NCBI GenBank assembly: GCA_964406075.1
Contig: CAYOQI010000001.1
Span: 197,015 to 261,014, forward strand
Direction: 5' to 3'
Length of the DNA: 64,000 nt
Source: an uncultured Pseudomonadales bacterium
GTDB taxonomy: Bacteria; Patescibacteriota; Microgenomatia; UBA1400; PJMF01
The position numbers and the translations under genes were made by a program. Below are positions 11,475-62,009 of this stretch, piece after piece (within the stretch, counting starts at the first letter, position 1; each line of letters begins with the position of its first letter). The notes below the pieces were generated by a model that worked only from the letters and a program-made list of their open reading frames with translations, was not told where the DNA came from and did not search any database.

Positions 11475-12098
11475 ATGAAAAAAATACTTCTCGTTCTTCC
11501 ACTACTTTTCTTGACTGCCTGCCAACCTAAAACTCCCACCGCTCAAATTGACCAAACTGAATCAGAGACTATTAATGAAGCACAACAAATGGGTAAATTA
11601 GTTGCTGAAGGTAAACCAGTTGCATGTGTGGTGACAGACAAGAAAACTAACGCCAGCTACACATATAAAATGATTGGTAAAAAAGTTCGAATGAGTGGGA
11701 TAACTACCACAGGACAAACGGGCAAGAGCTCCATGCTCCTTGATGAACAAAATATGTATATGTGGGACGAGGAGAAAAAAACCGGAACAAAATGGGCCAT
11801 CCCCACTGAAGACGACGCTAAAAAAACTGCTGAACAACAAGGGCGAAATATTCCAGATCTTTCCACCGAAGAATCTCGTGAGGAATACATCAATCAAGGA
11901 TATGCCGTTGATTGCGAGGAAACAGTCGTCACAGATTCAGACTTTATTCCACCAGCAGATGTAACCTTCAGTGATCTGTCCAGCATGATGGATTCTGCCA
12001 ATCAAATGATGCAAAATCCAACAGCCACATTGACACCTGCTCAGCAAGAGATGCTTCAAAAGCAATCTGAAGAGATGATGATGCAGTACCAACAATAG
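11475..12098 (+). CDS. lipoprotein, function unknown
   Basis: Signal peptide with lipobox LLFLTAC. Confidence 0.6.
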   Translation: MKKILLVLPLLFLTACQPKTPTAQIDQTESETINEAQQMGKLVAEGKPVACVVTDKKTNASYTYKMIGKKVRMSGITTTGQTGKSSMLLDEQNMYMWDEEKKTGTKWAIPTEDDAKKTAEQQGRNIPDLSTEESREEYINQGYAVDCEETVVTDSDFIPPADVTFSDLSSMMDSANQMMQNPTATLTPAQQEMLQKQSEEMMMQYQQ

Positions 12099-12126
12099 GT
12101 TCAAGGTATTAGGTACAAGGTGCAAG
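12097..12126 (+). repeat. Heptad array AGGTTCA AGGTATT AGGTACA AGGTGCA AG (NAG-N4 period on the plus strand)
   Basis: Read directly. It begins inside the TAG stop of 11475..12098. The first 11 nt, AGGTTCAAGGT, are the exact inverted repeat of 12511-12521. Confidence 0.75.
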
Positions 12127-12139
12127 ATTACGTCAATCT

Positions 12140-12517
12140 ATGAATGAATCTAAGCAGATTACTTCATTTAAAGATTTACTTGTATGGCAACGAGCAGTCA
12201 TATTTGTTACAAAAATCTATACTTTAACTAATACTTTCCCTAAAACAGAAACATTCAGTTTGATTGATCAGCTCAGAAGAGCTGCAGTTTCCATTGCCTC
12301 TAACATTGCAGAAGGGAAACAAAGACAAACTAAAAAAGAGTATATCCAATTTCTTCATATTGCCTACGGATCATGTGCTGAGGTATATACACAATTAATT
12401 ATTTCAAAAAATCTCGGTTACTTTAATGAAAAATCTTTGAACAATTTCTTGGATGAACTTCTTGTTATAGAAAAAATGCTTTCTTCTTTAATCAAAAAAT
12501 TGAAATCTTTACCTTGA
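12140..12517 (+). CDS. four-helix-bundle protein (23S rRNA intervening-sequence protein family)
   Basis: FKDLLVWQRA...LIDQLRRAAVSIASNIAEG...YGSCAEV matches the family signature. 125 aa. Confidence 0.85.
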   Translation: MNESKQITSFKDLLVWQRAVIFVTKIYTLTNTFPKTETFSLIDQLRRAAVSIASNIAEGKQRQTKKEYIQFLHIAYGSCAEVYTQLIISKNLGYFNEKSLNNFLDELLVIEKMLSSLIKKLKSLP

Positions 12518-12552
12518 ACCTTACATCCTGCACCACAAACCTTTCCTTTTCA
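12511..12552 (-). repeat. Heptad array; plus strand reads ACCTTGA ACCTTAC ATCCTGC ACCACAA ACCTTTC CTTTTCA
   Basis: Read directly. It overlaps the TGA stop of the four-helix-bundle gene. It is the complement-orientation partner of 12097-12126. Confidence 0.75.
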
Positions 12553-12644
12553 GGTTCCCTTCAGCTCATATCGTATAATTGAGCCTAGAGAAGAGTGTGT
12601 CAATTTCTCCCCTCTTCCATTTTTTAGATAAAAAAGGTCCAATT

Positions 12645-13316
12645 ATGCGAATACTTGTCATCGAGGATGAACATCGAATTGCCAACACAATTAAAAAAGG
12701 GTTGGAGCAAGAAAAGTATGCGGTCGATGTCACGTATGATGGTGAGACTGGATTGACGATGGCATTTGGTGAAGAGTACGACATCATCCTGCTCGATCGC
12801 ATGTTACCCGGAATCAATGGGGTGCAAGTAGCCAAAGAACTTCGAGATAAAAAACTTCATACGCCTATTTTGATGTTAACCGCCAAAGGTGAAGTTTCGG
12901 ATAAAGTCGAAGGTCTCGATTCTGGAGCCGATGACTATCTCACTAAACCTTTTTCGTTTGATGAATTATTAGCGCGAATTCGAGCACTCACTCGCCGCCC
13001 TTCTAACGTTTTAGAAACAGTTTTAAAGATTCAAGATCTTTCTCTGAATACCACTACCTTTGAAGTATCACGAGCCGATCAACATATTCAGCTGTCCACT
13101 AAAGAATTTTCTTTACTGGAATACTTACTCCGTCACGCTGAAACCACAGTTACGAAAGATCAAATTATCCAACATGTTTGGGATTATGATGCTGATGTTT
13201 TACCAAATACAGTAGAAGTGAATATTAAAAATTTACGCAATAAAATTGATAACCCGTTTAAAGATAAACCAAATTTAATTCAGACTGTTAGAGGCTTTGG
13301 ATATAAATTAGGATAG
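12645..13316 (+). CDS. OmpR-family response regulator
   Basis: Receiver domain (ILVIEDE, DIILLDRMLPG, LTAK) plus a winged-helix C-terminus (RGFGYKL). Start placed at MRILVIEDE. Confidence 0.9.
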   Translation: MRILVIEDEHRIANTIKKGLEQEKYAVDVTYDGETGLTMAFGEEYDIILLDRMLPGINGVQVAKELRDKKLHTPILMLTAKGEVSDKVEGLDSGADDYLTKPFSFDELLARIRALTRRPSNVLETVLKIQDLSLNTTTFEVSRADQHIQLSTKEFSLLEYLLRHAETTVTKDQIIQHVWDYDADVLPNTVEVNIKNLRNKIDNPFKDKPNLIQTVRGFGYKLG

Positions 13317-13321
13317 GTTGT

Positions 13322-15684: not shown

Positions 15685-15689
15685 ATTTC

Positions 15690-19453: not shown

Positions 19454-19512
19454 CCCCACCTCTCGTGTCTGCCAAAGGCAGACTCGAGTTCCTCCCCAGT
19501 AAATGGGGAGGG
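19454..19512 (+). repeat. R2-family structured repeat, the only plus-strand copy
   Basis: CCCCACCTCTC, then GTCTGCC-AAA-GGCAGAC, then CCTCCCC-AGTAAAT-GGGGAGG. Its box and terminal hairpin are near-identical to the copy at 55772-55831. Confidence 0.7.
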
Positions 19513-19554
19513 ATTCCGGCTGAGTTCGGGACAAGAGACCTAGAGACAAGTACT

Positions 19555-33199: not shown

Positions 33200-33215
33200 A
33201 AATTTCTTCTCTCAC

Positions 33216-41584: not shown

Positions 41585-43318
41585 ATGCTTCTTCTGATTC
41601 CTTTTGCTTTTCTTGCTGGAATTGTCACTATTCTTTCTCCGTGTATTCTTCCCATTCTGCCAATTATTTTGTCCGGTGCAGTCGGTGAAAACAAACGCAA
41701 ACCCCTTGGAATCGTTCTTGGCTTCGTTGCCAGTTTTACTTTTTTCACTTTATTTCTCACTACTCTCGTCAAACTCAGTGGTGTGTCACCAGATTTAATT
41801 CGCCAACTTTCCATCGTCATCATTTTCTTATTCGGAATAACTTTGATCGTCCCACAAGCCCAACTCTGGATAGAACGCATGTTCAGTGCAATTTCGTCTA
41901 AATTTCAAATCAATCAAAATAATAAATCAGGCATTGGTGGCGGAATAATAATTGGAGCGAGTTTAGGTCTGCTGTGGACACCGTGTGTCGGACCGATTCT
42001 CGCAACAGTTATTTCTTTAGCATTAACCGAAACAGTAACCGCTAGCGCCGTATTCATCACGCTTGCGTATGCACTTGGAACCGCAATTCCCATGTTTGTG
42101 ATTATGCGTGGCGGGCAAAGTGTTTTGCAAAAAAATCGATGGCTTCTCACACGTGGTGCATTGATCCAACAAATTTTTGGCGTGATCATGATTGCTACCG
42201 CAGTCGTGCTCAATTTCAATATTGACCGAAAATTTCAGACCTATATTCTCCAAACTTTTCCAAACTACGGAACAGGTCTTACTACATTTGAACAAAATGA
42301 TTGGGTGAACTCTGCACTCCAAAGTATTCGTGGAACATCAGGAACTCCGGATAAATACAAAAAATCTGGCATCATGCTTCAAAACTACGGGTCAGCTCCA
42401 GAATTAGTAGCTGGTGGTGAATGGCTCAATACTGATCCATTAACACTTGCTGGGTTGAAAGGGAAAGTGGTGCTCATCGATTTCTGGACATACACCTGTA
42501 TAAACTGCATCCGCACACTCCCGTATTTAAGAACGTGGGACGAAAAATATCGTGACAAAGGTTTAACCATTATTGGTGTTCACGCTCCCGAATTTGAATT
42601 TGAAAAAAATGTTGAGAATGTTAAAAAAGCTGCCTCTGACTTTGAATTACAGTATCCCATCATGCAAGATAATAATTTTGAAACGTGGAAAGCCTTTGAA
42701 AATCGATATTGGCCAGCTAAGTATTTGATTGATAAAGACGGCAATATTCGCTATGTTCACTTTGGAGAAGGAGAATATGATGAGACCGAACAAGCCATTC
42801 AACAGCTACTAAACGAATCAGGCCAAGAGGTGACGGAGGAAATTAATAATCCCCAATATCAGTTGAGTAGAACAACTCCTGAACTCTACCTTGGCTATGC
42901 ACGCATGGAGTATGACTACTCACCAGAAATTGCTGTTCAGCCAGATAAATTAACCACTTACCCCGAAAAAGATTCTTCCAAAATTCCATTGAATAATTTT
43001 AGTTTCGTTGGTAATTGGACCGTGAATAATGAATCATCATTATCTGAAGTGAACTCAAAATTTATCTTAAAATTCCGCGCCAAAGAAGTATTTTTAGTTA
43101 TGAATCCAAATGATGATACGTCAGTAACTGTGGAAGTTTTGCTGGACGGTCAGCCTGTTTCTGCTGACATAGCTGGAGAAGACGTAATCGATGGAAAAGT
43201 GTTAATTGATGCCGACCACTTGTATAAATTGATTAAATTACCAGAATCCGGAGATCACACCTTGGAGATTCGTTTCCCGGAAGGAAATGTCGAAGTCTTC
43301 GCATTTACATTTGGGTAA
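41585..43318 (+). CDS. DipZ-like thiol:disulfide oxidoreductase (CcdA/DsbD TM domain + TlpA-like thioredoxin + C-terminal beta-rich domain)
   Basis: LSPCILPILP and WTPCVGP (the CcdA cysteines), then WTYTCINC (CxxC). Start placed at the ATG at 41585, because the track ORF start at 41258 overlaps the SRPBCC gene on the other strand. Confidence 0.85.
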   Translation: MLLLIPFAFLAGIVTILSPCILPILPIILSGAVGENKRKPLGIVLGFVASFTFFTLFLTTLVKLSGVSPDLIRQLSIVIIFLFGITLIVPQAQLWIERMFSAISSKFQINQNNKSGIGGGIIIGASLGLLWTPCVGPILATVISLALTETVTASAVFITLAYALGTAIPMFVIMRGGQSVLQKNRWLLTRGALIQQIFGVIMIATAVVLNFNIDRKFQTYILQTFPNYGTGLTTFEQNDWVNSALQSIRGTSGTPDKYKKSGIMLQNYGSAPELVAGGEWLNTDPLTLAGLKGKVVLIDFWTYTCINCIRTLPYLRTWDEKYRDKGLTIIGVHAPEFEFEKNVENVKKAASDFELQYPIMQDNNFETWKAFENRYWPAKYLIDKDGNIRYVHFGEGEYDETEQAIQQLLNESGQEVTEEINNPQYQLSRTTPELYLGYARMEYDYSPEIAVQPDKLTTYPEKDSSKIPLNNFSFVGNWTVNNESSLSEVNSKFILKFRAKEVFLVMNPNDDTSVTVEVLLDGQPVSADIAGEDVIDGKVLIDADHLYKLIKLPESGDHTLEIRFPEGNVEVFAFTFG

Positions 43319-45545: not shown

Positions 45546-45609
45546 TGTCATCCTCGACGCGATTCTTTTTTAATTATATTAAAAAAGAAATCGAGCATCG
45601 GGGATCCAG
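45546..45609 (+). repeat. R1-family hairpin repeat, long solo copy
   Basis: TGTCATCCTCGAC-GCGATTCTTTTTTAAT...ATTAAAAAAGAAATCGAGC-ATCGGGGATCCAG. Its outer stem is identical to that of 61906-61968. The inner stem differs but still pairs. Confidence 0.75.
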
Positions 45610-46418: not shown

Positions 46419-46433
46419 TTCACTTGTCTTGTT

Positions 46434-46573
46434 TGTCATCCAGAGTACTCTGGTGTAATCACCAGAAACGAAGGATCCCGTCGATCATTGGAATAAAATG
46501 TTTACTTCGCATCTCAATAGCAACTACCGGATCCTTCACTTCTCGCGAGTACGCTAGAATGTTCTGGATGACA
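46434..46573. repeat. Complete R1 element, inverted pair (MITE-like, 140 bp)
   Basis: Left half 46434-46483 is TGTCATCCAGA...GAAGGATCCCGTCG. Right half 46528-46573 is CCGGATCCTTCAC...TCTGGATGACA. Both halves align with those of 33216-33350. Confidence 0.7.
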
Positions 46574-49386: not shown

Positions 49387-49407
49387 ACTTAGCACCTAAA
49401 ACCTAGC
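49387..49407 (-). repeat. Heptad array; plus strand reads ACTTAGC ACCTAAA ACCTAGC
   Basis: Read directly. On the minus strand it gives TAG/TAG/TAA at 7-nt spacing across the rfbB stop. Confidence 0.6.
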
Positions 49408-50371
49408 CCTTCAACGGTTTCCACCAGCCCTCATTATTTTTATACCATTCAGTGGTACGAGTTAAACCTTCTTCAAGCGTTACTGAAGGCGACCAACCAA
49501 GTTCTTGATGGATTTTTGACCAATCCACCGCATATCGTCGATCATGACCTTTTCGATCCTCGACAAACTCAATCTGAGTTTCATCTTTACCCATAATTTG
49601 AAGAATCATTTTCACCACTTCCAGATTACTCACATCTTTCGATAATCCACCAATCAAATACGTATCTTGGTTTTTGCCTTTGGTTAAGACTTCAGCGATG
49701 GCTCGACAGTGATCTTCAACGAACAACCAATCGCGAACATTGAGCCCATCCCCATAGACTGGAACTTTTTCACCTTCAATTAAATTAGTAATAGCTAATG
49801 GAAATAACTTTTCGGGGAAATGGTACGGCCCGTAATTATTTGAACAATTGGTCATCGTGTACGGCAAACCATATGTCTCGCCGTAGGCTCGAACTAAGTG
49901 GTCTGAACCCGCTTTACTTGCAGAATACGGGCTACGCGGATCATACTTCGTATCTTCGTTAAATTTCTCTGAACTTCCTAACTCTAACGACCCAAATACT
50001 TCATCTGTCGAAATATGATGAAAACGCTCAACTCCGGCTTTCAATGCACAATCCAGAAGAACTTGCGTTCCAATCACATTCGTTTGGACAAATATTTGCG
50101 GACCAGTAATAGATCGATCGACATGTGTCTCAGCTGCAAAGTGAACGACATGTGTCACGCCGTGCATAGCTTGAGTAACAGCCTGGGAATCAGTAATGTC
50201 AGCTTTGATAAAAGAATATCGGGAATCGTTTTCAATATCTTTGAGACTTTCCAAGTTACCAGCGTATGTGAGCAAATCAAGATTCACCACTTCAGAATCA
50301 AAATTCTTCAACCAGTAATGGATAAAATTGGAGCCGATAAACCCAGCTCCTCCGGTAACTAAAAGCTTCAT
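49403..50371 (-). CDS. rfbB: dTDP-glucose 4,6-dehydratase
   Basis: LLVTGGAGFIGSNF, YSASKAGSD and the overall RmlB pattern. Confidence 0.9.
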   Translation of the reverse strand: MKLLVTGGAGFIGSNFIHYWLKNFDSEVVNLDLLTYAGNLESLKDIENDSRYSFIKADITDSQAVTQAMHGVTHVVHFAAETHVDRSITGPQIFVQTNVIGTQVLLDCALKAGVERFHHISTDEVFGSLELGSSEKFNEDTKYDPRSPYSASKAGSDHLVRAYGETYGLPYTMTNCSNNYGPYHFPEKLFPLAITNLIEGEKVPVYGDGLNVRDWLFVEDHCRAIAEVLTKGKNQDTYLIGGLSKDVSNLEVVKMILQIMGKDETQIEFVEDRKGHDRRYAVDWSKIHQELGWSPSVTLEEGLTRTTEWYKNNEGWWKPLKG

Positions 50372-50657: not shown

Positions 50658-50699
50658 GACCTTTTCCCTTGCACCTTTAACCTCGAACCTGTCCTTATT
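50658..50699 (-). repeat. Heptad array; plus strand reads GACCTTT TCCCTTG CACCTTT AACCTCG AACCTGT CCTTATT
   Basis: Read directly. It ends on the stop codon of the GT2 gene. Confidence 0.7.
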
Positions 50700-51885
50700 T
50701 TTTCTTTCTCCAAATGATTTTTGAATATGCAAAAAAGTTCCAAAACATTCCAGCCAAAATACCAACCACAGCGTAGAAGAAGCCCGTATCAAACTCGATA
50801 CCGATAATTGGAAGTGTGATTAAAGTAAAAAGTCCAATAAATTTTTCTCCCCCAGTGCTAATCAAGAACTGAATGAGTAACGAACCAAGTGAAGTTAAAT
50901 TGAACTGTAAAAATTTGGCTGGAACTTGGACAGCTGTTAACTTTCGATCAGCAAATGTCCATAAATTACTAAAGATAAAATTGGAAATAATCGCCGTTTC
51001 AATACTCAGTAACGTCGCCTCTTGAAAAGCCGACAGAAAGGATACATGATTCACCGGAATTAAATAACGAAAAAGATGAAGAGAACTCAATTGTATTGCT
51101 GCACCAAGCCCACCAACCATGACAAATTTGAATGCTCTCTTCTTCATGAGTTCTTGAATTCGCACTTTGAGAATGTACATAAGTGTATTTTTGATATATT
51201 CAGTACCTAGTTTTGATTCACCAAAGGTTCGATCCACAAATTTGAACGGCACCTCTGCTATTTTGAAACCTCGGCGTACTGCTTTATGTAAAAATCCGAT
51301 TTGGAAAGTATACCCTGAAAATTGATCTGTGTTCATCTCACTTTTCACGGCTTCATATACTTCTTTCTTAATCGCTCGATACCCACTTGTCCAATCATGA
51401 ATTGAAAAATCGGTCAGCACCACGGTAATAATGATATTACCAACTACGCTCAAAAACTTTCGATGCGCTCCCCAATCATCCGGAATTCCACCACCTTCAA
51501 TATACCGCGATCCGAGTACAAAATCATATCCCTGATCAATTTTTTCTAAAAATTGAGGGATTTTGCGCGGGTCATGGGATAAATCAGCATCAAACTCGAA
51601 GATAACATCAGCATCCATATTGTTAAATGCTTCAGCCATTCCCTTTAAATATGCTCCACCTAATCCAGATTTTTTTGGATTAATGAGTAAAGAAACATAC
51701 GGGAGTTTTTTTGAAATTTTTCTGACCACATCTGCGGTTCCATCAGGCGAAGTATCGTCAACGATCAAGACTTCCAGTTTCCAGTCTTTTGATAAAGTGG
51801 AACGCACAGTATCCACAGCCAGGAGAGTCTGCTCGATATTCTCAGCTTCGTTGTACGTAGGGATGATTATGACGGCTTTGGACAT
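50695..51885 (-). CDS. GT2 polyprenol-phosphate glycosyltransferase fused to a GtrA-like membrane domain
   Basis: IIIPTYNEAENI, VDDTSPDGT and DADLSHDP (Dpm1/PPM synthase-like). The C-terminal 4-TM region is GtrA-like. Confidence 0.85.
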   Translation of the reverse strand: MSKAVIIIPTYNEAENIEQTLLAVDTVRSTLSKDWKLEVLIVDDTSPDGTADVVRKISKKLPYVSLLINPKKSGLGGAYLKGMAEAFNNMDADVIFEFDADLSHDPRKIPQFLEKIDQGYDFVLGSRYIEGGGIPDDWGAHRKFLSVVGNIIITVVLTDFSIHDWTSGYRAIKKEVYEAVKSEMNTDQFSGYTFQIGFLHKAVRRGFKIAEVPFKFVDRTFGESKLGTEYIKNTLMYILKVRIQELMKKRAFKFVMVGGLGAAIQLSSLHLFRYLIPVNHVSFLSAFQEATLLSIETAIISNFIFSNLWTFADRKLTAVQVPAKFLQFNLTSLGSLLIQFLISTGGEKFIGLFTLITLPIIGIEFDTGFFYAVVGILAGMFWNFFAYSKIIWRKKK

Positions 51886-53069: not shown

Positions 53070-54038
53070 TTAAGCCTTCCCTCGCCACTCTTCTAGCACT
53101 AACTTTAAACTTTCCTCGAGCGGTATTTCTGGTTTCCATCCTAACTTTTTTATCTTGTCACTGTTTGAAACCAGTGGAGAAGTATCGGGTCTCAATCGCG
53201 ATTCATCCGTCTTTACATCGATACTCACCTTCGCATGAGCAATCATCTTATCAAGCAATGATCGCATTGTGTAGCCTTGCCCACTGCCCACGTTATAGAC
53301 TTCACCTCGAACCCCTTTTTCCATCAAGAGCACATACGCTTTGACCACATCTCTCACATCACTCAAATCTCTAATTGGTTCCAAATTCCCGACTTTAACT
53401 TCCTTTTGTTCTCCTCGCTCCACCGCAACAATTTGACTTGCAAACGCTGGAATTGCAAAGTCAGCCGTTTGTCCCAACCCAATGTGGTTAAAAGGTCGCA
53501 CTCGAACAATATCCAACCCATATGAATTTGCATATGCGAGACCCAACAAATCTTGAGTAACTTTGGAAACTGCATACGGCGAAAGTGGTTGCAATGGATC
53601 TTCTTCCGAAAAAGCTATTCCTTCTGACTGGCTCGCCGTTTTTATTCCATATTCGGTTCCACTTCCTATAACTAAGACTCGAGCTTGTGGTGAGTGTTCT
53701 CGAACAGCTTCAAGCACATTCAGTTGAAGAGTAAGGTTATTGTGAAAAACTTCAGCCGCCCGTTCAAAACTCGCACCAACTATTGAGATCGCCGCCAGAT
53801 GAAATATCCAATTCGGTTGAATAGCTTTAATCAGCTCAAACACCGCCGAATGATTTGTCAGATCAAGACTCATGTATCGAACTTTTTCAGAAAAAGAAAT
53901 GTTTTTAGGAGCTGTATGTGAAAAACCCGTCGCCACAATTTGACAATCAAATGTTTTATCAAGCAACTCGATTAAATGACGACCAGCAAATCCAGTTCCC
54001 CCGGTCACTAAAATTGTTTTTGGCTGTGAAGCATCCAT
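53070..54038 (-). CDS. NAD-dependent epimerase/dehydratase, GDP-4-dehydro-6-deoxy-D-mannose reductase (Rmd)-like
   Basis: ILVTGGTGFAGRHL, SPYAVSK and RPFNHIGLGQ. Adjacent to gmd. Start placed at MDASQPK (54038), because the track start at 54110 lies inside the R2 repeat. Confidence 0.7.
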   Translation of the reverse strand: MDASQPKTILVTGGTGFAGRHLIELLDKTFDCQIVATGFSHTAPKNISFSEKVRYMSLDLTNHSAVFELIKAIQPNWIFHLAAISIVGASFERAAEVFHNNLTLQLNVLEAVREHSPQARVLVIGSGTEYGIKTASQSEGIAFSEEDPLQPLSPYAVSKVTQDLLGLAYANSYGLDIVRVRPFNHIGLGQTADFAIPAFASQIVAVERGEQKEVKVGNLEPIRDLSDVRDVVKAYVLLMEKGVRGEVYNVGSGQGYTMRSLLDKMIAHAKVSIDVKTDESRLRPDTSPLVSNSDKIKKLGWKPEIPLEESLKLVLEEWRGKA

Positions 54039-54047
54039 AAAAGTATG

Positions 54048-54106
54048 GCTTCTCTCCTTTGGGAGAGAAGCCTGGTAATCCAGGCAGTGAGGGGAGAATG
54101 ATCTCC
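54048..54106 (-). repeat. R2-family structured repeat (SD-sequestering hairpin)
   Basis: Minus strand reads GGAGATCATTCTCC-CCTCACTG-CCTGG-atta-CCAGG-CTTCTCTCC-CAA-AGGAGAGAAG-CCATACTTTT-ATG(54038). Confidence 0.75.
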
Positions 54107-54123
54107 GCACTTATTGCCATTGT

Positions 54124-54165
54124 TTCAACTGTCTCTAACCTCTAATCTCAATTCTCTTACTTGAT
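54124..54165 (-). repeat. Heptad array; plus strand reads TTCAACT GTCTCTA ACCTCTA ATCTCAA TTCTCTT ACTTGAT
   Basis: Read directly, in the divergent intergenic region before trmD. Confidence 0.6.
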
Positions 54166-54173
54166 GATAAAAT
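54165..54173 (+). promoter_or_regulatory. Candidate extended -10 (TGATAAAAT) that would give a leaderless trmD mRNA
   Basis: TGaTAAAAT ends 6 nt before the ATG at 54180. No SD. Confidence 0.3.
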
Positions 54174-54179
54174 CTTACC

Positions 54180-54917
54180 ATGCGTATAACCATTTTGACA
54201 CTTTTTCCTGAGATGTTCACTGGAGCTTTTTCACACTCCATGCTCAAACGTGCCCAGGATAAAAAATTGCATGATACTCCTCCACTTGAAATAGGAATCA
54301 TTAATATTCGAGATTTTGCTACAGATAAACATCAAACGACGGATGACCGTCCATACGGTGGTGGAGCCGGCATGGTAATGAAAGTCGAACCAATCGATCT
54401 TGCACTCCAGTATGTTCTCTCCCCCTCTAGGGGGAGAACTCAGGCGAGTTATCTGAAAGAAACTCGCCTGATAAGAGAGGGGGAAAGCTCCAAAAGTCAA
54501 ATAACTGCCTCGAAATCCTCAACCAAAATAATCCTCACCTCCGCCAAAGGGAAACTCTTTGGGCAACAAACAGCACAAGTGTATAGTCAGCTTGATCACT
54601 TAGTGATTATCTGTGGTCATTACGAAGGAGTCGATCAACGAGTTGCTGATCATTTAGTTGATGAAGAAGTTCGAATTGGAGATTATGTTTTAACAGGTGG
54701 TGAACCTGCCGCAGCAGTGATAACGGATGCCGTGGCTCGTTTACTTCCAGGAGTTTTAGGAAATGACGTCAGCGCGACTCACGAATCTCACTCTGAACCA
54801 GGATATTTAGAACATCCTCAATACACTCGTCCCGAAAAATATAACGATTGGGAAGTGCCTAAAGTCCTTTTACAAGGGAATCACAAAGAGATTGATGACT
54901 GGAGAAGTAAAAAATAA
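54180..54917 (+). CDS. trmD: tRNA (guanine37-N1)-methyltransferase carrying an in-frame insertion of about 24 codons derived from an R2 repeat
   Basis: ILTLFPEMF, DDRPYGGGAGMVM, CGHYEGVDQRV, IGDYVLTGGE and HPQYTRP. There are extra residues between PIDLAL and KIILTSAKG. Confidence 0.9.
   Translation: MRITILTLFPEMFTGAFSHSMLKRAQDKKLHDTPPLEIGIINIRDFATDKHQTTDDRPYGGGAGMVMKVEPIDLALQYVLSPSRGRTQASYLKETRLIREGESSKSQITASKSSTKIILTSAKGKLFGQQTAQVYSQLDHLVIICGHYEGVDQRVADHLVDEEVRIGDYVLTGGEPAAAVITDAVARLLPGVLGNDVSATHESHSEPGYLEHPQYTRPEKYNDWEVPKVLLQGNHKEIDDWRSKK
54416..54485 (-). repeat. R2-family structured repeat located inside the trmD coding sequence (antisense orientation)
   Basis: Plus strand reads TCTCCCCC-tcta-GGGGGAGA-ACTCAG-GCGAGTT-(11 nt)-AACTCGC-CTGATAAGA-GAGGGGGAA. 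The architecture matches the copies at 54048 and 58827. Confidence 0.75.
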
Positions 54918-55759: not shown

Positions 55760-55771
55760 ACCTATTTAATA

Positions 55772-55831
55772 CCTCCCCATTTATTAGGGAGGACCTCGAA
55801 TCGAATGATAATGAGATTCAGAGAGGTGGGG
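55772..55831 (-). repeat. R2-family structured repeat (SD-sequestering hairpin)
   Basis: Minus strand reads CCCCACCTCTC-TGAATC..GATTCGAG-GT-CCTCCC-taataaat-GGGGAGG-(12 nt)-ATG(55759). Confidence 0.7.
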
Positions 55832-56210: not shown

Positions 56211-56259
56211 GAGTTCCTTTTACTTAAGGCTTATTTCAACAAATTAGTTCACTACTTCA

Positions 56260-57342
56260 CTACGCTCCCACTACTCCACCTTTAAAGAAAATAATGAGAA
56301 ACAGGATCGTGATAAAAAGAGCAATGTGAGCAAAATTTTTCCCTACAAACCGAATCGTATTCAATTTTTCGATCACCATCGTATCGTAAATCAAGACGGC
56401 AATGACCAACAGCACGAGTGCCAAAAAGACCGCTTTTGAAAGGTGGAGAGGTGAAAAAAGTGGTGGACGTTCGATGTTTTGAATATACTCGACACTTTCT
56501 CTAAAAAGTTCTGGCGTGGCCAATACTTCAGGCTGTGCTTCCTCACTATTTTCTGTCATCACGGGCGGTTCCTGATCTTGACCGACAACTTCGTCGACTT
56601 GATTGATCACATCTTCTACTGCTTGCTCAGGATTTACCATTTCCCCAGTGACTTCATCAATAGCAGCTAAGGCTTGGGAATTTGCAACTGGAGCAGTCGT
56701 AGCTACAGGTTGAGGTGTTTTTTGCGGAGTGATCGCTCCCGTTCTACGAGTCGCGGCTGTACTTCCAAACATTTGAACTACCAACGTAGTCTCTGTTCCA
56801 TTGAGCACTCCATCGACCACCGCAATTCCAATTTCTTTATATCGAGTGTTCACAATATTTTCTTTATGGGTTGGCGAATTCATCCATGCTCTCATCATGT
56901 CTTCCGATTCCATAAAATCACGCGCCAGGTTTTCACCTGCAATAGTGTAACGATAGCCTGCCGTCTTCATGAACTGCCAAGGCGTTTTCCCTTTCGGCGA
57001 ATAGTGTGCCCAGTATTGATCAGCAAACATATCTCTGGCTTTGGCCAGTGCGGCATCACTCAGTTGTTTGTTGACGACTAATTCTCCCGTTCCAGCTTTG
57101 ACCCGTTCTTTATTGGTCAGCTCTACCACTTGAGTAGGAGTAATCGATGAAGAGTAGCCTAAAATTGTTCCTTGTTCAGACGACACACCACGAAGAATTC
57201 CGACTCCAGATCGAAAAATAACGACCAACAATAACAGAACTAGAAAACCTTCTGGATGCAAAATCCTCGGCCGATGATTATTCGAATGCCGAGGATGGAA
57301 AAGATGGGCAAATGTTTCAAAAACTTGCATGAATATATCCAT
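56260..57342 (-). CDS. CAP/SCP (YkwD-like) domain protein flanked by N- and C-terminal TM segments
   Basis: LTNKERVKAG...ARDMFADQYWAHYSP...AGENLA...AWMNSPTHKENI matches YkwD-type CAP domains. Start placed at MDIFMQ, because the track start at 57393 uses the CAT of an R1 repeat. Confidence 0.8.
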   Translation of the reverse strand: MDIFMQVFETFAHLFHPRHSNNHRPRILHPEGFLVLLLLVVIFRSGVGILRGVSSEQGTILGYSSSITPTQVVELTNKERVKAGTGELVVNKQLSDAALAKARDMFADQYWAHYSPKGKTPWQFMKTAGYRYTIAGENLARDFMESEDMMRAWMNSPTHKENIVNTRYKEIGIAVVDGVLNGTETTLVVQMFGSTAATRRTGAITPQKTPQPVATTAPVANSQALAAIDEVTGEMVNPEQAVEDVINQVDEVVGQDQEPPVMTENSEEAQPEVLATPELFRESVEYIQNIERPPLFSPLHLSKAVFLALVLLVIAVLIYDTMVIEKLNTIRFVGKNFAHIALFITILFLIIFFKGGVVGA

Positions 57343-57387
57343 TATGCTGAATTTTTTATCTGAAAACAAGGTATTTTTACAGTGTAA

Positions 57388-57420
57388 TGTCATCCCGACC
57401 GAAGTGGAGGGATCCCTGTC
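57388..57420 (+). repeat. R1-family hairpin repeat, short form
   Basis: TGTCATCCCGACCGAAGTGGAGGGATCCCTGTC. Confidence 0.65.
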
Positions 57421-57476: not shown

Positions 57477-58820
57477 TTAATTAATGCGAAATCTACGAAC
57501 TAACCCACGCCCCAACCAGCTCCCAATTCCTACTCCTCCAGCCAATAACCAATACCACTGACATAACCAGTGTAACCATGAGCCTGGTTCACAATCACAG
57601 CTACTTAACGTATAGAAAAAGTAAATGGAAGTCAGAATGAAAATAAAATCGGCACCAAGATGGAATGAATGTATTTTTTTTCGGAGTAATACATGATTTG
57701 CACCGTGACCAATTGCTTGTAGTAATAAAATAATGAGCGCCAGCCACATTCCATCCTGAGCACACTCCATCACTTCAGTCGCACTTGTTCCTAAAATAAA
57801 CGGAATAACTCCTGACAGAAATGGTTCTGGAGTGGGTGAGGGTTCGATTACATCTCCTAGTACTTCCCCATCGCTAAATCCAAGTGGAGCAGTAAAGGCA
57901 CCTGCAATAGCCGGTTGTCCTGTGGTCGCAACTTCATTCGATCGAGGTCCCGGTGCACATCCATTTATACCGAGTACTTGAAAGTAGTATTGAGTATTTG
58001 GAGTTAAGCCTGAAACTGTATAACTGGTCACATTGCCAACACTATTATTTCCAAATAAATAAACACCTGGTTGGACGCCAAAATTAATAGCATATGTCGT
58101 GACTGGTGAAACTGCTGACCATGCCAACGTCACTTGTCCATTCGCATTCACAATTCCCGGCACAAAAAGTTGAGGGGCAGAACTGGGTAGTTGATCGGTA
58201 CACGGTAGAGCAAAAGCATCCGTTGTCGTTCCGGCTACTGAGTTGAATGAGGTCGATGAAGTGGTTGAAATAGGCGTAGGTGTTGGAGGAGTCGGAAATG
58301 GTGTTAATTGAACTGCTACTTCAACATCAAATACGGTCTGTTTACCTTGAAATTGATTTCCCGAACTTGGATCAAATGTCGCAATGAACGCATATGTTTG
58401 AGTTTGTTGAGCAAGCAGGGGAGAGTAGGAGAGTAAGCTGGAAGAATTTAGTAAACTTTCCAAACTCTGAGAACTCATCACCACTTCCCCACTTTCTGTG
58501 TCTTTTCGAATTTCTATAAAAATTGCTGATGCCAAAGATTGATCGGTGACACCACTTGAACCCATCGCTTGCCAAGCCGGATACAAGGTCTCATTGGTCA
58601 TATTCGTAATAGCGAGGTGTTGAACAAATCTATCACCAGGTAATGTGTTCGTTTCTGAGAAAAGTTGGGCATTTGATGGAGTGATCACACAATCATCAAT
58701 TTCATTTGAACCAAAACAGATGACAGACAAATCTTGGCTTTGTGAGGATGCAAAAATCGGCTTGGTGAATCCAATGTAAAAAATAAAAAGGAAAATGAAG
58801 AAGGAAAAAAATTTAGGCAT
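57477..58820 (-). CDS. secreted TasA-like domain + Pro/Thr linker + fibronectin type III domain + Cys-rich 3-TM C-terminal anchor
   Basis: Signal peptide ...KPIFASS. LPGDRFVQHLAITN and GNQFQGKQTVFDVEVAVQ match the TasA/camelysin hallmarks PGD and QG...F.F.A.Q. FN3 signature VTLAWSAV...YTVSGLTPNTQYYFQV. The hydrophobic C-terminus contains CDCEPG/WLC. Confidence 0.65.
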   Translation of the reverse strand: MPKFFSFFIFLFIFYIGFTKPIFASSQSQDLSVICFGSNEIDDCVITPSNAQLFSETNTLPGDRFVQHLAITNMTNETLYPAWQAMGSSGVTDQSLASAIFIEIRKDTESGEVVMSSQSLESLLNSSSLLSYSPLLAQQTQTYAFIATFDPSSGNQFQGKQTVFDVEVAVQLTPFPTPPTPTPISTTSSTSFNSVAGTTTDAFALPCTDQLPSSAPQLFVPGIVNANGQVTLAWSAVSPVTTYAINFGVQPGVYLFGNNSVGNVTSYTVSGLTPNTQYYFQVLGINGCAPGPRSNEVATTGQPAIAGAFTAPLGFSDGEVLGDVIEPSPTPEPFLSGVIPFILGTSATEVMECAQDGMWLALIILLLQAIGHGANHVLLRKKIHSFHLGADFIFILTSIYFFYTLSSCDCEPGSWLHWLCQWYWLLAGGVGIGSWLGRGLVRRFRIN

Positions 58821-58826
58821 GGATCA

Positions 58827-58878
58827 TCTCTCCTTTGGGAGAGAACTCAAGCCCGATAGGGCCTGAGAGTGAGGGGCG
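58827..58878 (-). repeat. R2-family structured repeat (SD-sequestering hairpin)
   Basis: Minus strand reads CGCCCCTCACTCTCAG-GCCC-tatc-GGGC-TTGAGT-TCTCTCC-CAA-AGGAGAGA-TGATCC-ATG(58820). Confidence 0.75.
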
Positions 58879-58890
58879 TTAATATTTTAT

Positions 58891-58911
58891 ATCTTGAATC
58901 TTAGATCTCAG
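58891..58911 (-). repeat. Heptad array; plus strand reads ATCTTGA ATCTTAG ATCTCAG
   Basis: Read directly. It overlaps the stop codon of 58908..59855. Confidence 0.6.
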
Positions 58912-59855
58912 TTTTGCCAATCAAGTGGAAACGTCAGAGTATCTGTAATTTCTTGATTGTTCAGTAATTCCAACGTGACGGTCAAGCCAGCGACTTCCAG
59001 GTGAGGATTGCAACTCTGTTCATCTTCGGTGCACGTCCCGACATAGACATCTGGCATTTCAAACTCACCAAACGCATCTCGTTCTATCTGATTGGTTACA
59101 ACTTCCTCCACTGTTTCTCCATCTTTGACATGAGTATAGGTAAAGGTTTGCTTGATCGAGGTAACCTCATCATTCATCAACACTTGAGAAAGTAAGAACT
59201 CTCCGAGCTGAGTAACTTTGACTCCTTTTTCATTCATCAATACTTTTTCGTATATTTCAGTTGCTCCAGCTTCTGTCTGTGCCCCTTCAAGAATTTGTGA
59301 ATAGGTTGCTGGTTTTTCACCGGTGATCATAGCGACATCTTGAAATCCACCTAAGACTTCACCTTGCCAAGCCTCAGCCATAATTTTCACTTCACATGCA
59401 TGTGTATTGTCAGGATAAATTAATTGGTACCACCACTGCGTTTCTTCTTCAGACAGTAAAGAAAATGCTTGTCCTTGCTCTTCAGCCAGAGAGAGTGCAG
59501 TCAGTTTTCCAGAAAAAAGTGGAGTATCATCCGAACTGTTTTTCCATACCTCGATGTTAATACCTTCACAATTCACATCAGGATCGGGAGTCACTTCCCC
59601 CACAATCCGATACACAAAAGGTCGAGATCCAATATTTTTCACCATAAAACTTGAACGTTCGTTTTGAGGGGAATCTGTTACTGCTAATCTTGAAAGGTTG
59701 GAAGTCAAAGAGGTAACTTCTATATCCAGTGAACCTGTTCCCCACTGACTCACTTCTCCAACTTCCCGATCATGTGAGTACGACAATGTAGTTGGGATGA
59801 GTATGCTCATGACCAACGCCAACATGCCAGTAATTCGAACAATATGTTTTTTCAT
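58908..59855 (-). CDS. secreted protein with a divergent TasA-like N-terminal domain and an extra C-terminal domain
   Basis: Signal helix, then SHDREVGEVSQWGTGSLDIEV (compare FSDTETSxxNxFxAGSIDL). The later CEVKIMAEAWQ resembles the F.F.A.Q end motif. Confidence 0.5.
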   Translation of the reverse strand: MKKHIVRITGMLALVMSILIPTTLSYSHDREVGEVSQWGTGSLDIEVTSLTSNLSRLAVTDSPQNERSSFMVKNIGSRPFVYRIVGEVTPDPDVNCEGINIEVWKNSSDDTPLFSGKLTALSLAEEQGQAFSLLSEEETQWWYQLIYPDNTHACEVKIMAEAWQGEVLGGFQDVAMITGEKPATYSQILEGAQTEAGATEIYEKVLMNEKGVKVTQLGEFLLSQVLMNDEVTSIKQTFTYTHVKDGETVEEVVTNQIERDAFGEFEMPDVYVGTCTEDEQSCNPHLEVAGLTVTLELLNNQEITDTLTFPLDWQN

Positions 59856-59863
59856 TTCTTATC

Positions 59864-59914
59864 TGTCATCCTGAACATTCTTGAGTAATTTCAAGAAGTG
59901 AAGGATCCCGTCGG
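59864..59914 (+). repeat. R1-family hairpin repeat, solo copy
   Basis: TGTCATCCTGAACATTCTTGA-gtaatt-TCAAGAAGTGAAGGATCCCGTCGG. Confidence 0.75.
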
Positions 59915-59950
59915 GAACTGAAATACTTTGAAAACTCGGCTAAATTATCA

Positions 59951-59999
59951 ATCTACTAAATACCAACTACTAATTACTAATTACTAATTACTACTTTCT
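59951..59999 (-). repeat. Heptad array with three perfect tandem AATTACT units
   Basis: ATCTACT AAATACC AACTACT AATTACT AATTACT AATTACT ACTTTCT. It overlaps the last codons and TAG stop of the signal peptidase gene. Confidence 0.8.
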
Positions 60000-60843
60000 T
60001 TTCTCCACCATCAATATGAAGAACGTGATTCATTTTTTGTTTCGCAAGTGTCTTCATGCTCAAAACAGGTGCCGGATTCAGTCGATGCGATTCGAGAGGT
60101 ATGAACGTAATCGGTTTTCTCGGTCGTCGAATTGAAACATCAGTTTCCGCAATGCTCCCAGCTTTTTTTGCTTCAACATGTTTTTTAACAACATGATGAA
60201 CGGCTACAGGCGTTTTAATTTTCGGTGTTTCGCCTACCTGTTTTCGACCTTGGGTGATGATCACCATTTGTTTGCCTTCAGCTTTCCATCCACTTTTGGG
60301 TTCCCGTTTTATCATTTTCACTACTTCACCTTTTATGGCGATCAATTCTGAATACAGCAAAATTGTTGCAGGCACCACGATCATGATGATGAATCCCATT
60401 TGTGTTTGAGCAAACGAAATAATGCGTCCGACATACGGAAGGTGAACAAACACTTTCCCCACCACTCTATTGGCTGGGATGACTTCCCGATCTATTTCTT
60501 CATTAGCATCACCTTTGAGCGTGTATTGAGGAGCACTTCCTTCTGTTTTTGAAACGATTCGATGCGTGACTGTTTCTGTCGGATCTTTCGCTCCTTGTAC
60601 CGTGATCACATCATTCACGGCATATGTTGACTGTGGCATCACAATCACCAAGCTTCCCATTGAGATGGCCGGCTCCATTGAGCCTGACAGCACCGCAAAA
60701 AGTTTTAGTTTAAAAGGGGTATTAATTGTTGAAAGAACAATCACTGCAGCCACCAAAACCATCAGCAAAATAAAGAGATTGTAGGAAATTCCTACAGCTC
60801 CTTTCACTACATTCGCCGGTGTCACTTTTCTGCCTGTTTTCAT
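59977..60843 (-). CDS. sipW: signal peptidase I, ER/archaeal (SipW) type, with a basic C-terminal tail of about 118 aa
   Basis: N-terminal TM segment, LSGSMEPAI (catalytic Ser box), THRIV (His box), KGDAN and a second TM segment. The tail covers residues 171-288. Confidence 0.85.
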   Translation of the reverse strand: MKTGRKVTPANVVKGAVGISYNLFILLMVLVAAVIVLSTINTPFKLKLFAVLSGSMEPAISMGSLVIVMPQSTYAVNDVITVQGAKDPTETVTHRIVSKTEGSAPQYTLKGDANEEIDREVIPANRVVGKVFVHLPYVGRIISFAQTQMGFIIMIVVPATILLYSELIAIKGEVVKMIKREPKSGWKAEGKQMVIITQGRKQVGETPKIKTPVAVHHVVKKHVEAKKAGSIAETDVSIRRPRKPITFIPLESHRLNPAPVLSMKTLAKQKMNHVLHIDGGEKKVVISN

Positions 60844-60850
60844 CCTATAT

Positions 60851-60913
60851 TCTTAAAATCTCGCTTCCTGTTTCTTTAATCTCTCATCTTAATTTTAACT
60901 GACCGTTACTAAC
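60851..60913 (-). repeat. Heptad array of about 9 units; plus strand reads TCTTAAA ATCTCGC TTCCTGT TTCTTTA ATCTCTC ATCTTAA TTTTAAC TGACCGT TACTAAC
   Basis: Read directly. It fills the intergenic region between paralogue P1 and sipW. Confidence 0.6.
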
Positions 60914-61784
60914 TCCCCGTTAAATCAGGATTACACACAAAGTCAGGGTTGTTTCTAGATTGTTCCGCATAGAAAGACACGTTTCCTTCCATACTATCTG
61001 TCTGTGACACATTCGTCACCAATATTCCTTCACACTCTAAGCCAGTCGTATTTCGGATCATCGGCCCTTCTGTTGTGAGATTATCTTGAGTTACTACTGG
61101 ATCAAGTGGCGCAAGTTCACCATAACACCATGCTTGTCCGATAAAGTACTCTTCCTCACCGGTCACTGGACCGGTAAAGTCATCCCCTGGTCCCGCCGTG
61201 CTTGCTTTCCAAATATTCAATGTTGTATCTGCGAGTGGGAAACGAATCCCGCCATTGTCATCACCTTGCAAAAATTCGGAAGCTTTTCCTGCAATCAAGA
61301 AACCGTCAGCTTCATTTTCTTCCAAAACGTTATCTCCATCATCTGCCCAGAACATATAGCTCAACTCGTCATCAAGTTCGCCATCCCAATTGCCATTGGC
61401 AAGATCATCACCGTCGTTCGTTTCAGGAGTGGTTGCGACATTTTCCGCAGCACCCGTGAGCTCGATATCCATACACAAGTATGAATCGTTGTCATCCACT
61501 CGTAAACTAATAGTATCCTCGGTCATGTCTCCGGGTTTGAAATCTTCAAGGTTAAAAAAAAGTTCATCTTCTAAATCCGTCAGGGACCAAGTACTTGCCG
61601 AAATCGAAGACACCAGTCCATCTCGGATCAGATAACTCGCATTACCAACTTTTAGATCAATTGATCCTGCCACAAATGTATTATTGGAAGAAGTCTCTGT
61701 ATCAGAGAAAAACGCTTGTGTGCCAAAGATGAGGGCACTGATCGCACCGACAATCAACACTCCACTTAAAAGTATTCTTCGCAT
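60909..61784 (-). CDS. TasA/camelysin-like secreted protein with a SipW-cognate-type signal (paralogue P1)
   Basis: MRRILLSGVLIVGAISALIFGTQAFFSDTETSSNNTFVAGSIDL, FKPGDMTEDTISLRV and SQTDSMEGNVSFYAEQSRNNPDFVC. Four Cys are conserved with P2 and P3. Confidence 0.8.
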   Translation of the reverse strand: MRRILLSGVLIVGAISALIFGTQAFFSDTETSSNNTFVAGSIDLKVGNASYLIRDGLVSSISASTWSLTDLEDELFFNLEDFKPGDMTEDTISLRVDDNDSYLCMDIELTGAAENVATTPETNDGDDLANGNWDGELDDELSYMFWADDGDNVLEENEADGFLIAGKASEFLQGDDNGGIRFPLADTTLNIWKASTAGPGDDFTGPVTGEEEYFIGQAWCYGELAPLDPVVTQDNLTTEGPMIRNTTGLECEGILVTNVSQTDSMEGNVSFYAEQSRNNPDFVCNPDLTGS

Positions 61785-61905
61785 AAAAAATTCCTTTCAC
61801 CGTAAAATGTAATCTAAAACAACATCTCTAAATAAAGAAAAAAATCGCCTACTCCACTTCGTTTTATATCCTAATTTCGCAAGAAGTCAAATTGCGACCT
61901 AATTT

Positions 61906-61968
61906 TGTCATCCTCGACCTGAATCAATTTAAATTTATTAAAATTGAATTCAAGATCGGGGATCCAGG
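61906..61968 (+). repeat. R1-family hairpin repeat, long solo copy
   Basis: TGTCATCCTCGAC-CTGAATCAATTTAAAT...ATTAAAATTGAATTCAAG-ATCGGGGATCCAGG. Confidence 0.75.
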
Positions 61969-61981
61969 TCAACAGTAAATT

Positions 61982-62009
61982 ATTCTTAAGTCTTAAATCT
62001 TACTTATGC
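61982..62009 (-). repeat. Heptad array; plus strand reads TTCTTAA GTCTTAA ATCTTAC TTATGCT
   Basis: Read directly, just downstream of the P2 stop. Confidence 0.6.

Follow-up and report, generated by a model that had tools for sequence, protein, structure and literature searches.

What are the short runs of seven-nucleotide units that recur between the genes of an uncultured bacterium, and what accounts for where they stand and which strand they favor? The question is raised by a 64,000-nt stretch of contig CAYOQI010000001.1 (NCBI GenBank assembly GCA_964406075.1, positions 197,015-261,014 of the forward strand), hereafter the window, in which an AG dinucleotide returns at every seventh base in short tandem arrays, named here by their first coordinate (Table 1). 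An earlier note on this DNA, made from its letters alone, had described such arrays as strictly periodic, as lying almost all in one absolute orientation, and as resembling no described element. At a little better than even confidence, we read them as a local, lineage-specific form of the known bacterial intergenic 7-bp tandem repeats, generated by slippage and filtered by position and strand.

At most of the sites the 7-base tandem repeats prove genuine. Expectations were taken from dinucleotide-preserving shuffles of the sequence, and motif counts cover the 64-kb window. The pattern (CT-N5)x4 was matched 12 times on the two strands against 1.35 expected, a count reached by none of 100 shuffles, and (CCT-N4)x3 was matched seven times against 0.25 expected. 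On the plus strand, four CT dinucleotides in phase occurred 10 times at period 7 (0.82 expected) and never at periods 5, 8, or 10; when all 16 dinucleotides were scored on that strand, none came near CT, and the runners-up TA, CC, and AC stem from the same arrays. A motif-free scan for lag-7 identity led to the same places as the CT-motif search, with 9 of 51 intergenic regions scoring at least 13/21 (1.97 in dinucleotide shuffles) and four scoring at least 15/21 (0.13 in shuffles). Intergenic DNA makes up 9.5% of the window, and its identity at lags 7 and 14 is slightly higher than at adjacent lags. The claimed 7-nt period is therefore borne out, as shuffles of the same composition fall well short of the observed counts.

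Tandem Repeats Finder (TRF) and the lag-7 scans recovered 10 arrays of 3-9 head-to-tail units each, the structure that defines a simple sequence repeat (SSR). By lag-7 score the sites at 12097, 50658, 54124, 58891, 59951, and 61982 are strong; those at 37110 (within array 37105), 49387 (three units only), and 60851 (periodic only in its six promoter-proximal units) are moderate; and the site at 12511 (array 12510) is marginal. Nine or ten of the sites listed in the earlier note are supported in this way, with 12511 the marginal one. The listed site at 35612 is not, its lag-7 identity of 0.38 being that of the background, and an array at 41539-41580 had been missed. Arrays 50658 and 54124 are base-for-base identical in independent Logan contigs from the same sample (L085 and L081), so they are not artefacts of a single assembly.

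When the arrays were read on the AG strand and put in register, 52 heptads from 11 arrays gave the unit A-G-R-W-N-N-N, with A1 in 47/52, G2 in 50/52, R3 in 42/52, and W4 in 47/52 units and variable positions 5-7. The constant NAG that had been proposed is thus confirmed. The base ahead of AG is T in ∼35% and A in ∼42% of units, and C makes up 6% of array bases on this strand. Three sub-types can be distinguished: AGGTnnn in 12097, 37105, 49387, 50658, and the partner array 12510; AGAT/AGAAnnn in 41539, 54124, 58891, 60851, and 61982; and AGTAATT in 59951 only. Identity at the variable positions 5-7 is 42% between adjacent units, 37% between non-adjacent units of the same array, and 31% between units of different arrays (permutation P = 0.008), and the corresponding figures for positions 3-4 are 72%, 66%, and 37% (P < 0.0002). 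Perfect adjacent copies also occur, AGTAATT three times over in the window and TTAGATG four times over in its relative L082. Since neighboring units are the most alike and some adjacent copies are perfect, the signature is that of tandem duplication followed by decay, which indicates that the units are related through local tandem duplication.

The position of the arrays is as regular as their period. With the 3′ flank of every window gene aligned at its stop codon, eight arrays adjoin a stop, each of them in the sense orientation of the gene concerned (P = 0.008). Seven of them begin in or on the stop codon itself, in agreement with the claim that arrays straddle stops, and the eighth (61982) begins 13 nt downstream; examples of stop-anchored starts are TAG-GTTCA AGGTATT..., TAG GTTT TAGGTGC TAAGTTC, and TGAGATC TAAGATT CAAGATA. 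Measured against uniform placement of each array in its own spacer, this closeness to the stop has a combined P of 0.009.

Strand could follow either the genes or the replication fork. As a description, one absolute orientation holds, with CT on the plus strand in 10 of 11 arrays and a GC skew that is negative over the whole window (P = 0.012), but it is confounded with gene strand. Seven of the eight stop-adjoining arrays follow minus-strand genes, and the only one that follows a plus-strand gene, 12097, is the reversed array. What appeared to be an absolute orientation is largely gene orientation. A DNA-level feature oriented by replication, in which CT would lie on C-rich, probably lagging-strand sequence and arrays would arise or act asymmetrically at the fork, draws on this same skew, on the lie of both divergent-region arrays (41539 and 54124) on that strand, and on the finding that the purine strand is the G-rich strand in 17 of 21 cases at other loci. 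We nevertheless regard it as improbable: the one array behind a plus-strand gene flips with its gene, the difference between arrays after plus-strand genes (1/34) and after minus-strand genes (7/45) is not significant (P = 0.13), and gene sense is no worse a predictor of the purine strand (20/23). The two divergent-spacer arrays do not tell the gene-sense and absolute-strand rules apart, and gene direction and skew are too closely correlated, with the five discordant cases split 3:2, for gene and replication orientation to be separated by local GC skew. A skew that marks the leading strand would place AG, rather than the primase signal CTN, on the presumed lagging-strand template, and on this inference primase sites were rejected. 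The earlier argument for a DNA-level role from antisense arrays at 12511 and 35612 also falls away, as the latter is not an array and the former is the inverted partner of 12097.

Table 1. Tandem arrays of the window and examples from two syntenic relatives; the AG strand is the strand on which the AG core is read.
Feature	Coordinates	AG strand	Units and periodicity	Position relative to genes
AGGT-type array	12097-12126	+	AGGTTCA AGGTATT AGGTACA AGGTGCA AG; lag-7 15/21; TRF period 7, 4.3 copies	Begins within TAG stop of gene 11475-12098(+), sense; left arm of inverted pair with 12510-12541
Marginal array	12510-12541	-	AGGTAAA/AGGTTCA/GGATGTA/TGGTGCA...; lag-7 12/21	Overlaps TGA stop of four-helix-bundle gene 12140-12517(+); right arm of inverted pair
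AGG-type array	37105-37144	-	TAG GTTTGC TAGGGAT TAGGGGC AAGGTAT CAGGTTT TAG; lag-7 13/21	First bases are TAG stop of gene 37142-39136(-), sense; convergent intergenic region
Array absent from earlier note	41539-41580	-	TTCTGTA x5 on +, TACAGAA on -; TRF period 7, 5.1 copies; lag-7 15/21	Inside 86-nt divergent region between 41058-41498(-) and DsbD-like gene (likely start ATG 41585)
AGGT-type array, three units	49387-49407	-	TAGGTTT TAGGTGC TAAGTTC; lag-7 12/21, short	First bases are TAG stop of dTDP-glucose 4,6-dehydratase gene 49403-50371(-), sense
AGGT-type array, 5-6 units	50658-50699	-	TAAGGAC AGGTTCG AGGTTAA AGGTGCA AGGGAAA AGGTCAT; lag-7 14/21	Starts at TAA stop of glycosyltransferase gene 50695-51885(-), sense
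AGA/AGG-type array	54124-54165	-	+ (CT) strand GTCTCTA ACCTCTA ATCTCAA TTCTCTT; lag-7 14/21	Divergent region between epimerase gene 53070-54110(-) and trmD 54180-54917(+)
Period-8 array	56248-56279	-	GTAGTGAA x2 plus degenerate units; TRF period 8, 2.0 copies; lag-8 scan	Spans TAG stop of gene 56260-57393(-)
AGAT-type array	58891-58911	-	TGAGATC TAAGATT CAAGATA TAA; lag-7 15/21	First bases are TGA stop of gene 58908-59855(-), sense
AGTAATT array	59951-59999	-	3 perfect and 4 degenerate units; TRF period 7, 5.7 copies, 87% matches; lag-7 20/21; only self-complementary array	Spans TAG stop of SipW-type signal peptidase gene 59977-60843(-)
AGAT/AGAA-type array	60851-60913	-	lag-7 13/21; clearly periodic only in six units nearest downstream start	Occupies 65-nt spacer from stop of 60909-61784(-) to start of 59977-60843(-)
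AGA-type array	61982-62009	-	TAAGATT TAAGACT TAAGAAT; lag-7 15/21; TRF period 7	13 nt past TAA stop of gene 62023-62820(-), sense
Long post-stop arrays, relative L084	4788-4842, 7845-7945, 10256-10350		Often period 8, in-phase GTT	After stops
Long post-stop array, relative L082	6426-6470		Often period 8, in-phase GTT	After stop

Two groups of genes beside the arrays deserve mention. Arrays 41539 and 54124 lie directly upstream of -10-like hexamers (TATACT for the DsbD-like gene, TAAAAT for trmD) that end 6 nt ahead of the ATG. Neither the DsbD-like gene (ATG 41585) nor trmD (ATG 54180) is preceded by a Shine-Dalgarno sequence (41573-41587 and 54168-54182), and the sequence suggests that their transcripts are leaderless. 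The co-directional cluster at 57477-63672 carries a heptad array in nearly every spacer; it encodes the SipW-type signal peptidase (59977-60843) and a neighboring gene with a SipW-dependent signal peptide, which is a paralogue of the gene next to it (61640-61721 versus 62676-62757, 72% identical).

Arrays that begin on a stop codon might serve as back-up stops. The earlier note had read them as shifting stop triplets through all three frames, which holds for 5 of 11 arrays and for no others, and the AG strand of the window arrays carries 43 stop triplets where composition-matched shuffles carry 37.9 ± 3.9 (P = 0.12), so that there is no excess. Back-up termination in three frames was accordingly rejected as the purpose of the arrays, the window count fitting composition, with the reservation that the arrays of relatives are enriched in stop triplets (39 versus 24.7 ± 3.3, in all three frames). 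Multi-frame stops are treated here as a side effect of units that started from a stop codon, or as a lineage-dependent feature. Hairpin terminators were rejected as well, as the arrays are unstructured (RNA fold z-scores of -1.9 to +1.3) apart from the self-complementary AGUAAUU array at 59951 (-3.2). Consensus terminator and promoter scans of 48.5-64 kb gave counts not above those of shuffles, and an Rfam search of the window returned one tRNA only, with no array matching an RNA family.

An RNA-binding attenuation protein was the first RNA-level role to be proposed. HutP sites consist of two groups of three UAG triplets spaced by 4 nt, placed in a leader ahead of a terminator, whereas TRAP sites consist of 9-11 (G/U)AG triplets separated by 2-3 nt. 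The window arrays have in-phase NAG in common with both and the 4-nt spacer with HutP, whose geometry they fit to the point that 3-6 units would suit one or two hexamer faces; with 3-7 units and a 4-nt spacer they are not TRAP sites. Only that spacer speaks for a dedicated oligomeric NAG-binding reader of either kind, which we find hardly credible. The base N is variable and is T in too few units for UAG; the arrays stand past stops, convergent gene ends included, and not in leaders ahead of a terminator, with no alternative hairpins or antiterminator logic; and they are many, at ∼10 arrays per 64 kb. Relatives alter both the spacing, to period 8, and the in-phase dinucleotide, and similar arrays occur in unrelated phyla in which HutP is not known to occur. 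Among the 30 small open reading frames (ORFs) of the window, which is a fraction of the genome, no HutP, TRAP, CsrA, or Hfq domain was detected.

How stable are the arrays within their own lineage? The host belongs to the Patescibacteria, of the candidate phyla radiation (CPR): among the TrmD matches listed, with one genome per GTDB species, the best is 55% identical and the top ones include several Patescibacteria, and homologues of the glycosyltransferase (50695-51885) that carry a source name are mostly Patescibacteria or Paceibacterota. A cyanobacterial origin of the STRR type, hinted at by composition and some family names, was rejected on the strength of these homologues. Two syntenic relatives, L082 and L084 (81% and 80% amino-acid identity), have coding DNA 76-79% identical to that of the window, and their spacers have no detectable similarity to it. 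Both carry short-period arrays right after stops, built from other units (TAAGATT, TTAGATG, and GTT-type); in several of these, identity at lag 8 exceeds that at lag 7 (0.47 versus 0.21, 0.51 versus 0.24, and 0.48 versus 0.33), and the in-phase dinucleotide is GT or TT, not AG. Past the stop of the orthologous glycosyltransferase gene stand five AGGT units in the window, ∼12 units in L084, and no array at all in L082. Across 35 loci (∼410 kb) from Patescibacteria with 52-64% identical glycosyltransferases there were almost no arrays. With other units, periods, and gene sites in close relatives and near-absence from distant ones, the feature is lineage-specific and turns over fast, and neither the spacing nor the core of the arrays is fixed within the lineage.

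A related pattern was seen inside a gene. The linker insertion of TrmD (54180-54917) differs in length by ∼25 residues between the window and L084 (6080-6784), with L082 intermediate, and in L082 the DNA of this insertion (1377-1423) is itself a 7-nt periodic array within the coding region. Judging from these sequences, protein linkers that tolerate it may be lengthened by slippage of heptads in multiples of 21 nt.

The same phenomenon is found well outside this lineage. In a control set of 1.2 Mb from 80 unrelated genomes, made up of the TrmD loci among the matches listed, 62 arrays were found at lag 7, compared with 4-20 at lags 4, 5, 8, 10, 11, and 13. Where such arrays lie no more than 60 nt from a stop, the purine-rich strand is the sense strand in 22 of 27 cases (20/23 in a second count); near starts there is no strand bias (8 versus 10). 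AG-core arrays after stops include AGGTTAC x4 in a gammaproteobacterial metagenome-assembled genome (MAG), AAGGTnn in a planctomycete, and AAGGAGT in a deltaproteobacterium. In this small sample, AG ties for first among the in-phase conserved dinucleotides past stops (15/117 = 12.8%, against a background of 6.2%), and CC and TG are depleted. Viral contigs from IMG/VR, picked only for AGGTNNN x4 or AGGTTCA x3, show a comparable asymmetry, as arrays after stops are sense in 40 cases versus 18 and arrays before starts are antisense in 36 versus 24. A period test with AGGT x7 in IMG/VR returned >120 stretches at period 6, at least 94 at period 7, and at least 69 at period 8; it was set aside as not clean, period 6 being coding and period 8 including AGGT tetranucleotide repeats. 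Some small contigs among the IMG/VR loci (L094, L110, L551-L580, and others) contain three or four AGGTTCA arrays, and the motif GGTTCRA resembles that of the tRNA T-arm, which may be coincidence.

The reading that we favor, slippage followed by filtering, would bring these observations together as follows. Slipped-strand replication or a small tandem duplication would copy a 7-nt (occasionally 8-nt) unit that holds or adjoins a stop codon; the copies would multiply, and arrays would grow and shrink and then decay through point mutation. Their survival would be limited to places that tolerate gains or losses not divisible by three, namely the first few dozen bases past a stop or a promoter-distal spacer, and to arrays oriented so that the transcript stays rich in purines and poor in C. 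No dedicated reader protein would be needed, and the extra out-of-frame stops and weak Shine-Dalgarno-like AGGT cores would be by-products. We infer that slippage generates the arrays and that selection imposes the restriction on position and strand.

Several points weigh against this account. The near-invariance of A1-G2 in every window array, across arrays that differ at other positions, is not predicted by neutral decay of independent SSRs, and slippage does not account for it. Nor does it account for the recurrence of AGGT-type units past stops in unrelated phyla. Also counting against it are the exact 10-mer AAGGTGCAAG common to AGGT arrays 12097 and 50658, which lie 38 kb apart, and the 34 IMG/VR stretches of (AGGTTCA)x3 when two permuted heptads of the same composition gave 4 and 1; recurrence of AGGT and AGGTTCA across taxa suggests a sequence-specific constraint or spread by copying. 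The polymerase explanation of a 7-nt preference is, where it is cited (PMC4692102, PMC4679880), a published conjecture only. Other assemblies of the same organisms are identical to the window and its relatives or do not cover the arrays, the sole second assembly of the window being identical.

The near-invariant AG and the return of AGGT in unrelated taxa keep a functional reading at the RNA level alive, as a tentative alternative to which we assign a minor share of belief. Sense (W)AGRW heptads past the stop would act on the transcript as a cis element read by ubiquitous machinery, either as weak Shine-Dalgarno-like sites in tandem, with AGGU paired to ACCU in the 3′ tail of the 16S rRNA, which would retain ribosomes that are terminating or have been recycled or would shield the RNA further downstream, or as regularly phased sites that an RNase or a KH/S1-type protein would cut or bind. 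Such a role would suit the sense orientation and the start at the stop codon, the constancy of AG while positions 5-7 drift, and the C-poor, unstructured array RNA, which would be accessible. AGGT, AAGG, and AGGAG heptads past stops in unrelated phyla, the doubling of AG in phase there, and the excess of AGGTTCA heptads in IMG/VR, roughly 10-fold or more over the two permuted controls, point the same way, and the lineage encodes an RNase Y, as judged by Pfam domains found in L082 and L084. Yet 6 of 11 window arrays are of the AGAT, AGAA, or AGTA types, which have no complementarity to the anti-Shine-Dalgarno sequence, several stand at convergent gene ends with no downstream cistron, and relatives at ∼80% identity have GT or TT in phase, often at period 8, and no array at some orthologous sites.

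A broader version, which we consider rather unlikely, holds that AG-core heptads (AGGT, AGGA, or AGAT plus three free bases) on the sense strand right past stop codons are a functional 3′-end RNA signal across phyla, served by conserved machinery. Candidate readers would be the 16S anti-Shine-Dalgarno tail, acting on ribosomes as they terminate or are recycled, and an RNase of general function, and the tandem-repeat form would merely be how the signal arises and is tuned. If true, it would account for the near-invariant AG, for sense orientation in three independent data sets, and for the recurrence of AGGTTCA-like units in unrelated bacteria and in phage contigs.

The value of the finding lies in its clean anchoring at stop codons and in an AG core that recurs across phyla. 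The window adds a CPR lineage to the hosts of heptanucleotide repeats and offers a compact, well-defined case with a common AG-R-W core, stop-anchored starts, and the sense rule published for Xanthomonas and Nostoc, a rule recovered again in the 80 unrelated genomes and in viral contigs. Should the rule of strand and position reflect selection on the transcript, it would amount to an unrecognized constraint on the first bases past a stop codon; should it reflect mutation only, it would be a useful indicator of how slippage and repair operate in reduced genomes. In annotation, such arrays should not be taken for regulatory protein-binding sites or mobile elements.

One pair of arrays has a distinct arrangement. 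The 12-mers AGGTTCAAGGTA and TACCTTGAACCT (12097-12108 and 12510-12521) are complementary at 12 of 12 positions, and 24 nt are 75% complementary; this perfect complement validates the marginal array at 12511 as the inverted partner of 12097. The arms, at 12097-12541, exactly bracket the four-helix-bundle gene 12140-12517, a member of TIGR02436, the 23S rRNA intervening-sequence protein family, and in a minimum free energy fold the two arrays are predicted to pair around the whole ORF. Such pairing would resemble the stems that flank rRNA intervening sequences, and on this model the gene and its arms may represent a cassette that was inserted or a stem for RNA processing. Inverted array pairs able to form hairpins have many examples in other taxa, among them AGGT arrays paired with an inverted ACCT array into long hairpins.

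The window also holds dispersed repeats of other kinds. An intergenic repeat of ∼48-69 nt (TGTCATCCTGA...GAAGGATCCCGT), probably the R1 of the earlier note, occurs at 33209-33277, 33303-33350, 46427-46495, 46526-46573, and 59857-59925, with shorter relatives at 45546-45575 and 61906-61935, often as closely spaced inverted pairs; its motif TGTCATCCTGAGC also stands behind a heptad array at locus L014, from a Chloroflexota MAG. A 35-nt element with its own hairpin (GACTCGAGTTCCTCCCCAGTAAATGGGGAGGGATT), probably the R2 of that note, is present as two inverted copies at 19481-19515 and 55768-55802 that are 86% complementary. That the heptad arrays are degenerate ends of these elements, which the earlier note had named as a refuting case, was rejected: a dispersed-repeat copy is found within 50 nt of two arrays only, 59951 and 61982 (copies 59857-59925 and 61906-61935), and none is near arrays 12097, 37105, 41539, 49387, 54124, or 60851.

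Two genes next to array 37105 have features of their own. The gene at 35669-37015 encodes a ribonuclease of the beta-CASP metallo-beta-lactamase fold, whose best NCBIfam similarities, to the type VII CRISPR-associated Cas14 and to archaeal aCPSF1, both fall far short of the family cut-offs; the window showed no CRISPR array. The gene at 37142-39136 encodes a 664-aa protein with no family match, a glycine-rich tail encoded by a CAC/CGC triplet repeat (37150-37190), and an internal 38-nt repeat at 870-nt spacing (37958-37995 and 38828-38865), the latter suggesting a tandem domain duplication.

Tandem heptads as such are well known in prokaryotes. Heptanucleotide repeats are described as the most abundant class of long SSR in most prokaryotic genomes, with long SSRs being sporadic in distribution (Mrazek, Guo and Shah 2007, as cited in PMC4679880 and PMC4692102; distribution in PMC4679880). 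The window arrays resemble these long 7-nt SSRs in being head-to-tail and mostly intergenic, in favoring period 7, and in their sporadic, lineage-specific abundance, and they differ in being short (3-9 units) and mostly imperfect, with a common AG core and a host among the Patescibacteria, for which no description of heptanucleotide repeats was found in the literature. Compared with the STRR heptads of cyanobacteria, which reportedly are longer and more uniform, they have other units and come from another phylum. Like them, the STRR heptads of Calothrix PCC 7601 and heterocystous cyanobacteria are tandem, noncoding, and near gene ends, as they are cited in PMC4692102.

Another published class is that of the TAACTGA heptamers of marine Beggiatoaceae, some cyanobacteria, and Bacteroidetes, which are intergenic in 2-6 copies and for which S1, Csp, and CsrA were discussed as possible readers (MacGregor 2015, PMC4679880). 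They too are intergenic tandem heptamers with no predicted RNA structure, and in both cases the forward orientation carries stop triplets, which restrict how far a repeat can overlap a coding end. The TAACTGA repeats differ in that each genome has a single fixed unit and most copies stand a few nucleotides ahead of starts, whereas the window has several unit types, mostly at stops.

The same placement is described for the heptads GGGAATC of Xanthomonas and GGGGAYT of Nostoc, whose mean distance from the ORF upstream of them is 28 nt (Rehm et al. 2015, PMC4692102). Their preferred places are the first 50 bp after a stop, overlap included, on the sense strand or, on the antisense strand, the 50 bp ahead of an ORF. 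They are scarcer than expected between divergent genes, vary in number and sequence among related species, and form G-quadruplexes (G4) in vitro, with four units preferred; no function was found for them (PMC4692102). Could the window arrays act in the same way, with at least four G-tracts at 7-nt spacing folding as G4 on the sense strand? Three arrays have at least four AGG/AGGG tracts (12097, 37105, and 50658), and position and strand match those of the published G4 heptads (PMC4692102). We consider this very unlikely all the same: the Xanthomonas and Nostoc units carry GGG or GGGG tracts, no window array has four or more runs of at least three G at 7-nt spacing, GGG occurs in few units, and six arrays (AGAT, AGAA, and AGTA) have no G-tracts. 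An AG-R-W core with mostly GG or no G-tract makes G4 unlikely for most window arrays. What the window arrays do have in common with the Xanthomonas and Nostoc heptads is sense placement past the stop (8/8 in the window, 0-13 nt from the stop), scarcity between divergent genes, and variation between relatives; with these, the Beggiatoaceae heptamers, and an abundant SSR class already published, the statement that no element of this kind had been described was incorrect, and the window arrays take their place beside published heptads of the same placement.

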